A stretch of DNA of 64,000 bases, taken from the NCBI GenBank assembly GCA_951406725.2, contig OX597831.1, positions 24,862,001 through 24,926,000 of the forward strand, written 5' to 3'. How positions within the stretch are numbered: the stretch's first letter is position 1; each line of letters starts with the position of its first letter. A program made the position numbers and the translations under genes. This DNA is from Octopus vulgaris (Eukaryota). Positions 2,527-63,590 of the stretch are shown in pieces. Below the pieces are notes generated by a model. It was not told the DNA's origin, did not search any database, and saw nothing but the letters and a program-made list of their open reading frames with translations.

Positions 2527-3072
2527 AGGTGCAGGAGTGGCTGTGTGGTAAGTAGCTTGCTTACCAACCACTTGGTTCTGGGTTCAGTCCCACTGCGTAG
2601 CACCTTGTGTAAGTGTATTCCACACAGCCACTCCTACGCCTATGTATATATTATTAATAATATGAATATATACTATTCATAATGAGTTATAGGGTTCAGG
2701 TGCACGACAGAATGCAGCAGTAAGTCAAGTGAAGAGACACAGCAATGCTAATCAAAAGGGCATGCATAGAACACAGTGTAAAAAATAAGAACACAGGAAA
2801 GTAAGCAGTAATAGAGCCTTAAAGACGAATGAGTGCATAGACATGTCTGAACTAGTGTTGGAGAATTTAAGGAAGCATGACTTTTTGAAAGATGCAGGAG
2901 TGGCTATGTGGTAAGTAGCTTGCTTACCAACCACATGTTTCTGGGTTCAGAATATATAGCATATATTTGCAAGCAATATAGTAGAAGACACTTGGGCAAG
3001 TGTTTTCTACTATAGCCTCTAAATATATGCTATATATTTACAAGCAATATATAGCATATATTGCTTGCAAAT
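2527..3072 (+). mobile_element. Two rearranged 5' fragments of SINE A with fold-back duplications
   Basis: SINE heads at about 2527 and 2892; inverted copies of head and internal sequence at 2619-2643 and 2951-3072. Confidence 0.7.
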
Positions 3073-10823: not shown

Positions 10824-10980
10824 CATTAACAACATATACTTAATGTAAATGCTTCATGTTTTTGCCAATGGACTGCTATTAGTACAGTGGAGTATGTACA
10901 TTTTCAAAGTACTCTACTGTGCCAACAGCAGCCTACTGGCAAATACACAAAGCATATATGTTAAGTCTATGTGGTTAATG
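10824..10980. mobile_element. Fold-back MITE-like palindrome with TTAA ends
   Basis: Imperfect ~70 bp inverted arms 10824-10894 / 10910-10980. Confidence 0.6.
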
Positions 10981-12650: not shown

Positions 12651-13202
12651 TATATAGACTGCATATATAGACTCACATATACTTACCCTTTGTCCGTACG
12701 TCGTTATACAAAATATACAAGCATTATGTTTAATAATCTTTCAGAATCCGGACATATTCAGGTAAACAAAAGGAATATGAAACAATTAATTTTATGAAAG
12801 CTTACTTTTTTTTCTTCTGTTGTCTTTTTGTTTTCTCTTTTGATGTATTTCTGCATTATGGCTTTTGCTTTGAAATACAGACTGTCTAAAGTTTTGGACA
12901 AATCTTCGGATAAAGAAACCTCAAAAAATTTAAAAGAAGGATAAAAAAATTTAATCAACAGCAAAAATCTTTGATTTTACTCTATTTTAAGTTTTGTTTT
13001 ACTGAAAAACAAAAAATAAATAAATAAATAAATAAAAGGAAAATCTGGAGCGACAAACTGAAGCATGGTAAAATTGCACCACAGCAACGATGTCAATAAG
13101 ATTTCAAGATGGATACCAAATGTAAAGGAGTGCAGTGAGATGCAATAAAGAGAACTGCATGCGTTAGTGTGTGAGCCTGCAGATTGATACAAACCTTTGA
13201 TG

Positions 13203-13281
13203 CGATGTGAGTGGTTCCGGAGTTTCACACCCATCAGTCACAACAGTCGATGGGTGTGAACCTCTAGAAAATCTCACATTG
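13203..13281 (+). ncRNA. Candidate microRNA precursor hairpin (family not recognised)
   Basis: 33-position stem with a perfect 12-bp upper stem and symmetric mismatches; 13-nt loop; UG at -14 and CNNC at +17 relative to predicted Drosha cuts 13215/13271; unique in window. Confidence 0.7.
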
Positions 13282-13440
13282 GTCTTTCACCAACCGACAA
13301 TGAAAATGCATAAAAAAGAACTCCATGTTTCCAGCCAGCAAGCCTGCCAGTTAGACAGACAATCATAGGATGGAAACAGCTTTTTTTTTTTTTTTATTAA
13401 TAACAACAAATAGAAACCTTGTATATTCTATGTCTGTGGT

Positions 13441-13478
<38 letters not shown>

Positions 13479-13616
13479 TCTGTTAGTGTTTGTTTATTCA
13501 GTCAAACTTCTCGCTTCCTTAATCAATTTTATGCCTTCAGGTAACAGTTGTGCATTCTGATAACAGATACATCTCTACATACATACACGCATTAATACAT
13601 ATATATAGATACATAC

Positions 13617-13652
<36 letters not shown>

Positions 13653-13668
13653 GCATACATACAAATGC

Positions 13669-13695
<27 letters not shown>

Positions 13696-13703
<8 letters not shown>

Positions 13704-13893
13704 CATACAACCACTCACATAATTGCACATACACATAGATATATCTGTATATATTTATATTAGATATATATGAGAGGGATGACTGCTTTGTGGACAACCC
13801 TTATGCTGGAAGAAGATCTGCTATGGTCTTACCACTAAGAAATGTTCTCAAGAAAATTCTGCCAACACCAGAACGTAAATACATATATGTATA

Positions 13894-13931
<38 letters not shown>

Positions 13932-14145
13932 TAGGTATACATACATATGCATATATTTATATACATACATACATACATCCACTCACATAATTGCACATAC
14001 AAATATATACATATACATGTATCTGTTTATATTTATATTACATACATATGAGAGGGATGACCGCTATGGGGACAGCCCTTATGCTGGAAGTAGATCTGCT
14101 ATGGTCTTACCACTAAGAAATGTTCTCAAGAAAATTCAGCCAACA

Positions 14146-14147
<2 letters not shown>
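13696..14147 (+). repeat. Tandem duplication (~280 bp period) of a microsatellite-embedded segment
   Basis: GAGAGGGATGAC...GCCAACACC core at about 13770-13869 and 14048-14147 with few substitutions. Confidence 0.85.
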
Positions 14148-14205
<58 letters not shown>

Positions 14206-14838
14206 TAAATAAATACTTAAACATATATATCACACACACACACATGCAGAGGCATTCACATGAACGTGCACACAAATATTTATACAGACACACACTCATA
14301 CAAGTATAAACTAGTATCAATTGAAAATTAATCCCACGTTTTTGTATTTCAGTAAAGATTATGATGATGATGATGATGCTGTTTTTTTTTTCTTTCTATT
14401 TGTTAACACCCACCACAACATTTACTGGCTTCTGCTTTGGATTAAATATATTCTGCTATGACTTCTTATCTCCTCTCTTCTATGACCACAAGCTAATGAG
14501 AAACGTCTTTGTGCTCAATCTACCTTCAAAAATAGCAGCTGAATTTTCTTTTTTTTTTCTCTGTCAGCTTACACCCTGCTGTTTAAAATTGATTGGCTTA
14601 ACCCATTGGCTTGCAGATTAGCCTGTCAAATATAATGCTTCTTCATTCACTTTGTTTTGAATTAATCATACATTATCTCATAGCTTTGAGATTGCGATGA
14701 CATGACTGTTTATTTTTAGAATGACATTGTAGGGTAGGTGTGAGAGGCCAGAGTTGGGCACTTTCAACATAAAACACGTAGAATGATTTTGGGCTGGATA
14801 TGGTTGGTTTAACCCTCTAGCAAACAGATTACACTTCT

Positions 14839-19380: not shown

Positions 19381-19740
19381 ATTTAGATTGACTGAGGTAG
19401 TAATACGAGTCATAAAAGTCATTATTATGAGGTGATTATAAGATGATAATAAAGTAAGAGAACAAAACGAACCAATGGTTCACGCAAACGATGAATAGCT
19501 TTGCATAAACCATTGGTTCGTTTTGTTCTCTTACTTTATTATCATCTTATAATCATCTAATAATAATGACTTTTATGACTCGTATTACTACCTCAGTCAA
19601 TCTAAATGTATATATTTGTCGTTACCTGTCATAAATAGCCTTATTCTATTTGCAATATGCATTTTCGTTGATTTTTCATATTTTACCCTTACATTTCCGC
19701 GTGTATTTTAAATTTTCTTTTCGCAACATATTTCTACTAT
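19381..19740. mobile_element. Fold-back insertion between (TA)n tracts (Penelope-like remnant)
   Basis: Near-perfect 108-bp inverted arms 19381-19488 / 19500-19607 with an 11-nt spacer. Confidence 0.7.
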
Positions 19741-22409: not shown

Positions 22410-22530
22410 CAAGGCATAAGAAACATCTCAAATCATATATGTTATGATTCTTAAATTAGTTGAGGTCTGTAAAACGTCAACTAATTTAAGAATCATAATG
22501 TATATGACCTAAGATAATTGTTATGCCTTG
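22410..22530. repeat. Inverted repeat with AAAACGTC at the spacer junction
   Basis: Arms 22410-22463 / 22477-22530. Confidence 0.75.
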
Positions 22531-36869: not shown

Positions 36870-37520
36870 TAATAGTAATAATGAAATTGTTGTACGCAGT
36901 GCTCAGGTGCACCACAACTTGTCAAAAGTGCGTATAAAGTATATGCAGTAATGTACAAATGTCTGGAAAGTGAACAGTGTATGAGTCAGATACATGCTTG
37001 TATGTGTATGGTTTTGTAGTGTTGGCAAATCTCAGAAAGCATGAAAGTTTTGAAGGATGCAGTGCTCTAACAACCGATGCTGGAAGTTTGTTCCATGCTT
37101 CAGCAACTCTTAGTGTGAAAAAAATGTTTCCGAAAGTCATGGGAACTGTGCTGTTTTCTGACTTTGTAAACATGTCCACGGGTGTTAGACAGATGGAGTT
37201 TGAAAAGGTGCTCAGAGTTATTCTTGGTAAGATGGTTAATAATTTTATGGGTGTCTGCCAAGTCAGCTGCCAGACGTTGGAGTTTCAATGTAGCCATGCC
37301 CAGGGAAGTAAGGCATTCAGAATATGGCAGATGCCTGATGGAGGGTATTCTCTTGGTTGCACGTCGCTGAACAGCTTCTGGATGATTAATATCCTGGGCA
37401 AGATAGAGGTTCCAGACCAGTGATGCAAATTCCAGGTGAGGTTGAACCATAGCTATATAAAGCCGCAGATAGATAGCCGGAGAGCGGCTCACAAAGGACT
37501 TGGTGAGTGATGCCAAGACA
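36870..37520 (-). pseudogene. CR1-clade LINE 3' fragment (RT C-terminus plus 3' UTR)
   Basis: ORF 37100-37516: LYIAMVQPHLEFASLVWN..EAVQRRATKRIP..YSECL..TRGH..RKHFF, then frameshifted RVAEAWNKLP; typical CR1 motifs; (ATT)n-like tail. Confidence 0.88.
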
Positions 37521-38076
37521 TGTCATTTATAATAAGTACATTTAATGTACATGTTTTTGTGTTTAGAGCTACATACAAAGAATTTGTATTCAAGAAATTT
37601 GCTTTGCAATTATAAGGTCACTGTTTCAATTTCACTGCGAGGCATCTTGGCCAAGCATCTTTTAAAATAGCCTTAAGTCAACCGGAGCCTTGTGGGTAAA
37701 ACTGGGTAGATAGGAACAGGATTCCTGTGTTGGAAAGACTGTATCTGTTATGGAAAGGGCCGGCATTGTCACACACTCTGTTATGCTGATTCTACATGAG
37801 GATTACATTAAAGGTATCTGTGTCTTTAGAATACTCAGCTATATGCGAGAATACAATAAGCCGATTGAAATACTAGAATAATCATCATTTAAACTGACAA
37901 AATTCATCTACTTTTACTTGGTTTGTATGTTTGTACATTTGACTACATACGTATGTGCATATGTATGTGCGCGTGTGTGTGTGTGTTGTGCTTGGGTATT
38001 TAAACAGTAGCACCCCAATATGAACATGCTCATATGCAAATGCATGTATTTAAATTTTGCATATATATATAGATGG

Positions 38077-63027: not shown

Positions 63028-63590
63028 TTGGGTTGTCCAGAAAGTTTGTGCTGATTTTTAATGGAAAAAGGTTAATAAATATTTGCCATTACATTTTTAA
63101 TCAACCAAATATGAACCATTTTGTTTCACAATGCATCTCTTTCTTTCCTTTAACTTGAAAATATCCACTTCCCAGAACTGAGGTGGTTTTATGGTAAAAA
63201 AATTCATCAAGGTATCTTTTTATGTCATCCAAGGAATTGAAATTTTTACCATTAAGACTATTCTGCAGAGACCTAAATAAGTGGAAATCTGAAGGAGGAA
63301 TATCTGGTGAATATGGAGGATGGGGTAACACATCCCAGCTGAGCTTCAGCAATTTTTGTCTGGTTCCCAAAGCATCAAGTGCCGAAAATGAACTTTCTTA
63401 TCTTCCATTTTAAAGGGTTACATAATTAACACAGGTTATAGGAACATAAACCTTCTTCCATGAAAAGATAGCTTAAACTGTGCTCTAAATGGAGGTGTAG
63501 TAAAATCCTATTTTATGGACTCAACCATGTTCTAAAATAAGTCAAATGGTAAGCTACCATAAATCGGCACGAACTTTCCAGACAATCCAA
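63028..63590 (-). mobile_element. Internally deleted mariner element (mellifera-subfamily-like)
   Basis: 30-bp TIRs TTGGGTTGTCCAGAAAGTTTGTGCTGATTT (5 mismatches), TA on both sides; N-terminus MEDKKVHFRHLMLWE (ATG at 63408) abuts C-terminal TRQKLLKLSWDVLPHPPYSPDIPPSDFHLFRSLQNSL. Confidence 0.92.

Follow-up and report, generated by a model that had tools for sequence, protein, structure and literature searches.

A single-copy hairpin of Octopus vulgaris as a very probable conserved cephalopod microRNA gene with a squid orthologue

Does a symmetric hairpin in the Octopus vulgaris genome represent a genuine microRNA gene, which of its arms would provide the product, and how old is the family to which it belongs? 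These questions were raised by a first-pass annotation of a 64,000-nucleotide stretch of genomic DNA (hereafter the window, meaning the whole stretch that was analysed), in which a strong candidate microRNA gene of a lineage-specific or novel family was proposed. The analysis described here leads, with high confidence, to the reading of this single-copy hairpin as a conserved cephalopod canonical microRNA gene with a 5p product. The coordinates of its features are collected in Table 1.

Table 1. Features of the hairpin locus, in window coordinates.
Feature	Position	Strand	Remarks
Single-copy block with alignments to three further organisms	13046..13378		no listed change 13199-13295
Basal UG motif	13201..13202	+	at -14/-13 relative to 13215
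pri-miRNA stem-loop	13203..13281	+	33 positions, 28 paired, mismatches all symmetric
Mature 5p microRNA (predicted) UUCCGGAGUUUCACACCCAUC	13215..13235	+	21 nt, may reach 13236; equals the E. scolopes consensus mature sequence
Seed UCCGGAG, positions 2-8	13216..13222	+	predicted 8-mer target site CUCCGGAA
Apical loop	13236..13248	+	13 nt, no UGU/GUG; squid 4/13 identical, ungapped, by eye
3p arm	13249..13271	+	predicted star 13251-13271; squid 17/20 identical over 13249-13268, by eye
CNNC motif (CACC)	13288..13291	+	+17 counted from 13271, after which Drosha is predicted to cut

The stem of the pri-miRNA is formed without gaps by 13203-13235 and 13281-13249, with two G-U pairs. Pairing is interrupted by a 3x3 internal loop (13212-14 / 13270-72), by single 1x1 mismatches at 13218/13266 and 13223/13261, and nowhere else, while a perfect core of 12 bp (13224-13235 / 13249-13260) adjoins the loop, inside which two isolated pairs appear in the MFE fold. 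The + strand folds with an MFE of -41.7 kcal/mol (z -6.16), and none of 200 shuffles folded equally well. The pairing was recomputed, and the stem, the perfect core, the purely symmetric mismatches and the 13-nt loop described in the first-pass annotation were all recovered, as were the UG at -14 and the CACC at 13288-13291. A stem of about 33-35 bp, a basal UG and a flanking CNNC are Microprocessor determinants; basal UG and CNNC are common but not obligatory processing motifs, and the same applies to the apical UGUG and to CmR/GHG. The CmR/GHG motif is absent from this hairpin, which has A at position -5 and a pair at -6/+4. Since the apical UGUG and CmR/GHG motifs are optional, the microRNA call stands despite their absence.

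A sequenced counterpart is found in a small-RNA study of the bobtail squid Euprymna scolopes, in which Data Set S1 lists miR_306399_46928 in row 189 of the hemolymph sheet, with a miRDeep2 score of 330, + orientation and 'NA' for miRBase (PMC8125070). The entry is a miRDeep2 prediction without a curated name, and the table gives consensus sequences without read stacks (PMC8125070). As listed there, its mature sequence is identical to window 13215-13235 at 21 of 21 positions on the + strand, and its 5' end coincides with the Drosha cut predicted from structure alone (13215). The squid mature sequence begins the precursor, so the product is the 5p arm of the + strand. The sequenced squid orthologue thus agrees with the first proposal in strand, in arm and in a 5' end at 13215, as well as in the microRNA call itself. 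The earlier suggestion that the arms should be better conserved than the loop is borne out too, the listed squid sequence giving the order usual for a microRNA, mature over star over loop (Table 1). Beyond the mature sequence, its 5' end and the arm, the two species share the loop length and one syntenic neighbour. They differ at three star positions, at 9 of 13 loop positions and in the end of the precursor, which in the squid table corresponds to 13268 and would need 3 nt more for the canonical 3' overhang. One of the three star changes turns a G-U into a G-C pair, and the other two break a pair. Among the sheets available, the squid entry is present for hemolymph and absent for the light organ, and its level was higher in cell-free hemolymph than in the aposymbiotic light organ (logFC 9.45, logCPM 7.94, FDR 0.0044) (PMC8125070).

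The position of the gene is partly shared with the squid as well. Five entries are listed in that table for the squid scaffold, namely miR_306399_46928, a pair for a single further locus, and two more. One entry, miR_306399_46916 (miRDeep2 score 2000), is placed 2.78 Mb upstream of miR_306399_46928 on the same strand (PMC8125070), and has one perfect match in the octopus genome, 1.70 Mb upstream of the hairpin and again on the same strand. This match (C18:23177056-23177078) sits within a hairpin (z -4.6), and is a second conserved microRNA gene. Another entry, miR_306399_46896 (score 830), has its one perfect match elsewhere, on the - strand of contig C8 (C8:52289304-52289325), which is likely a third conserved microRNA. 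Synteny with the squid was therefore observed at one of the two loci tested, squid entry 46959 (score 1.1) lying outside the test.

By the standard pathway, the + strand would be transcribed as a pri-miRNA, from which Microprocessor cuts at 13214/13215 and 13271/13272 would free a precursor of 57 nt (13215-13271). Next, Dicer would cut after 13235-36 and before 13250-51, releasing a 5p arm of 21-22 nt to be loaded into Argonaute as the guide, and the seed would direct repression of mRNAs with CUCCGGA(A) in their 3'UTRs; for the 8-mer target site of Table 1, the definition given in PMC9699675 was applied. It is likely that the octopus gene makes the same small gene-silencing RNA as the squid, since its 21-letter arm is identical to the sequenced squid microRNA. 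The start of the 5p product at 13215, as originally predicted, matches the squid; the predicted length of 22 nt does not, the squid consensus being 21 nt and missing the final A. If the 5p arm has 21 nt here as in the squid, the star would start at 13251 and not at 13250, its ends being derived from the geometry of a 2-nt overhang.

The hairpin also compares well with the norms of MirGeneDB, which describe arms that pair imperfectly (median 19 bp), a mollusc precursor below 80 nt and a loop of at least 8 nt. Here, 19 of the 21 5p bases are paired, the arms share 19 pairs, the precursor has 57 nt and the loop 13-15 nt; the arm length fits, and U occupies positions 1 and 9 of the mature 5p sequence. 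For the processed arm, where 20-27 nt in small-RNA reads is the norm, the evidence is the published consensus read of the squid orthologue (21 nt), which comes from another species. For conservation, where at least two species are considered, there are the squid, with its mature over star over loop order, and three further organisms with no listed change. The microRNA criteria of Fromm and co-workers from 2015 are said to ask that both arms yield reads, with uniform 5' ends and 2-nt 3' overhangs.

A different division of labour between the arms or strands has to be weighed at this point: the locus might be a real microRNA gene whose main product in this species, or a second one, comes from the 3p arm or from the antisense hairpin, through an arm switch or a bidirectional locus. 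The fold of the minus strand is almost as stable (-40.3 kcal/mol, z -5.8), its loop contains UGU/GUG, and neither arm carries a listed change in the three relatives. However, the minus strand has a shorter basal stem and, over the four offsets that were tried, no UG with CNNC, and in squid the product comes from the 5p arm of the + strand, the sole arm invariant between squid and O. vulgaris. Such an arrangement is accordingly held to be improbable, and a gene whose product is the 5p arm is the preferred reading.

Closer relatives were reached through public sequencing runs, of which 24 were listed, none of them recorded as RNA, and 20, under eight organism codes, hold part of 13141-13340. Four of the 24 were compared. 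Contigs spanning the hairpin were obtained from three of them (organisms F, G and H), and the fourth (X11) covers 13237-13379 only. Over 12661-13044 none of the runs gave an unambiguous contig, and neither this gap nor X11 is counted as evidence. The contig of organism H aligns to 13292, just past the CNNC motif. Within 13046-13376, the three spanning contigs show 23 substituted positions and two indels, and none of the listed changes in these organisms falls between 13199 and 13295. The absence of all 25 variable places from the 91-nt hairpin has a hypergeometric P of about 2e-4 (per run 0.024, 0.005 and 0.015), values which are rough, the runs having been found by words shared with this stretch, the depth being 3-4 and some changes being common between organisms. 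Each spanning contig has 2-5 further differences near its ends, outside the 25 counted.

These contigs also bear on the idea that the hairpin is a conserved structured element, either an ADAR substrate or a cis-regulatory hairpin within a long transcript, with the squid small RNA as a by-product. Two low-depth contigs (X9 and X16), from runs guessed to be RNA, cross the hairpin uncut, and the flanks too are well conserved among the close relatives. Against this, an element kept for its structure should change in both arms together, whereas the 5p arm is fixed and its partner arm and loop drift, and the constraint extends over the Microprocessor motifs. This explanation is regarded as highly improbable beside a canonical microRNA gene.

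How far could such a hairpin arise by chance or from a repeat? The hairpin is single-copy in the 2.8-Gb genome, with one DNA match for 110 bp and one for 333 bp, in accordance with the 'unique sequence' of the first-pass annotation. A DNA search scoring the best candidates revealed no further copy with E values as high as 1, and the same search recovered the copies of a control hairpin at 10863-10941. The 5p arm has one genomic match within 2 mismatches (control 1), and the 3p arm is matched exactly once and with 3 mismatches 11 times (control 26), so that nothing rises above the control. A multi-copy MITE, which the annotation had named as the outcome that would count against it, is recognised by many dispersed TIR copies, and a single copy was found.

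Folding alone proves little, since the repeat-derived hairpin 10863-10941 folds as well as the candidate. This hairpin, 2.3 kb upstream, has 29 of 33 pairs, a 13-nt loop and a z of -6.89. Four more copies of it, at 78-87% identity, are present in the genome; it shows no UG/CNNC and no match in the squid microRNA table, and looks like a repeat-derived inverted-repeat (MITE-like) remnant. A microRNA cluster that would include it was considered and rejected, the neighbour being repeat-derived and absent from the squid table, and no clustered microRNA was found within the 64-kb window. In an ungapped scan of both strands of the window, 50 symmetric hairpins were counted in which 26 or more of the 33 positions pair. 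UG and CNNC, scored at four cut offsets per hairpin, occur together in two of the 50, namely 13203-13281 and one that is microsatellite-like; the two motifs come together at 0.8% of all positions in the window. Long, almost perfect inverted repeats (27-32 of 33 pairs) are seen at 19450-19538, 22433-22507, 2954-3035 and 231-321, without UG plus CNNC. They are probably foldback or MITE remnants, and the first seems to continue beyond both its ends. As for the candidate itself, an origin as a decayed inverted repeat, MITE remnant or chance hairpin, which the 50 symmetric hairpins and the equally good fold of the multi-copy neighbour would favour, is scarcely credible against the lack of a second copy, the full identity with a sequenced squid small RNA, the partly syntenic position and the confinement of the relatives' changes to the flanks.

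The surroundings of the gene were also surveyed. No host gene was found by a Pfam scan of 150 of the 183 filtered frames of at least 45 aa, a scan insensitive enough to miss transposon-like fragments, and its four weak matches did not reach its cut-off. Two frames on the minus strand have no Pfam match: 37100-37522, which we take to resemble the last part of a LINE reverse-transcriptase ORF, and 63101-63397, presumably resembling a mariner transposase fragment. At 12741-12767, 450 bases upstream of the hairpin, a 17-base stretch is flanked by AG and GT splice-like signals and could represent a host-transcript micro-exon; none of the contigs compared reached it or joined it to other sequence. 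A local duplicated unit of about 280 bases, together with AT microsatellites, follows the hairpin closely on its downstream side (13610-14292).

With regard to family and age, the locus is, judged by its sequence, a conserved 5p microRNA of coleoid (or older, cephalopod) origin with the predicted seed UCCGGAG. The family would have originated no later than the octopus-squid ancestor, these lineages having split nearly 300 million years ago (PMC9699675). Of the proposal 'lineage-specific or novel', the first half holds at the coleoid or cephalopod level, and the second fails, the squid orthologue having been present in a table of 2021; the gene is already on record at least through that orthologue. 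According to PMC9699675, 90 novel octopus families are recognised, of which 43 are common to the bobtail squid and 12 more are shared with Nautilus as well, so that 43 Coleoidea and 12 Cephalopoda families make 55 octopus-squid families in MirGeneDB, where both octopus and squid are represented. Assignment to a named family would call for agreement in sequence and seed with a curated entry, together with presence in octopus and squid and absence from Nautilus (Coleoidea) or from other molluscs (Cephalopoda). Coleoidea family names include MIR-12510 and MIR-12511 (supplement of PMC11701709). The present hairpin resembles these novel families in being common to the bobtail squid, outside miRBase v22.1 (by the squid table), single copy and unclustered, and it is probably among the 55. 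Since conservation with the squid and expression in the squid are what MirGeneDB annotation would capture, we are fairly confident that it is curated there.

Searches of the literature and of other resources returned no name. The arm sequences have no match in the supplement text of PMC9699675, the Data S1-S4 archive being effectively outside that search, nor in the part of the supplement of PMC11701709 that was available; the supplement of PMC12479628, as far as available, gave no sequence match in a search without a positive control. Neither 16-mers nor 12-14-mers of the arms led to a relevant paper among article main texts, and a search by octopus microRNA names pointed to PMC9699675 as the one relevant source. 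In Rfam 15, no family reached its gathering score over the whole window, and the 10 sub-threshold matches at E up to 10 over 13000-13500 include none that is meaningful; the likeness is that of a generic hairpin (mir-181 E 1.3, MIR5565 E 3.7, far under gathering scores). Metagenome contigs gave 0 matches to the hairpin.

A bolder possibility, which we consider rather unlikely, is that an octopus-squid family nearly 300 My old has been missed by both MirGeneDB and miRBase, that it circulates cell-free in squid hemolymph, and that it might serve as a regulator which is carried in the blood and has few targets. Seed positions 2-7 form a palindrome containing CpG, and on this reading the site of such a seed should be rare in AT-rich 3'UTRs. 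CpG is depleted in the window (observed/expected 0.41). The median count of 7-mers there is 5, and the seed 7-mer is seen a single time, within the hairpin; roughly one 7-mer in four is as rare, so 'few targets' is to be taken as no more than a hint.

The microRNA gene adds no new mechanism, and it would be more significant only if the family were absent from MirGeneDB or if its few predicted targets indicated a specific coleoid trait. What it offers is a sound annotation, in which a reading of the letters alone obtained the right strand, arm and 5' end, and a link by which an unnamed squid hemolymph microRNA is now tied to its O. vulgaris orthologue. In this way, the gene takes its place in the cephalopod microRNA expansion that has been linked to coleoid nervous systems (PMC9699675).
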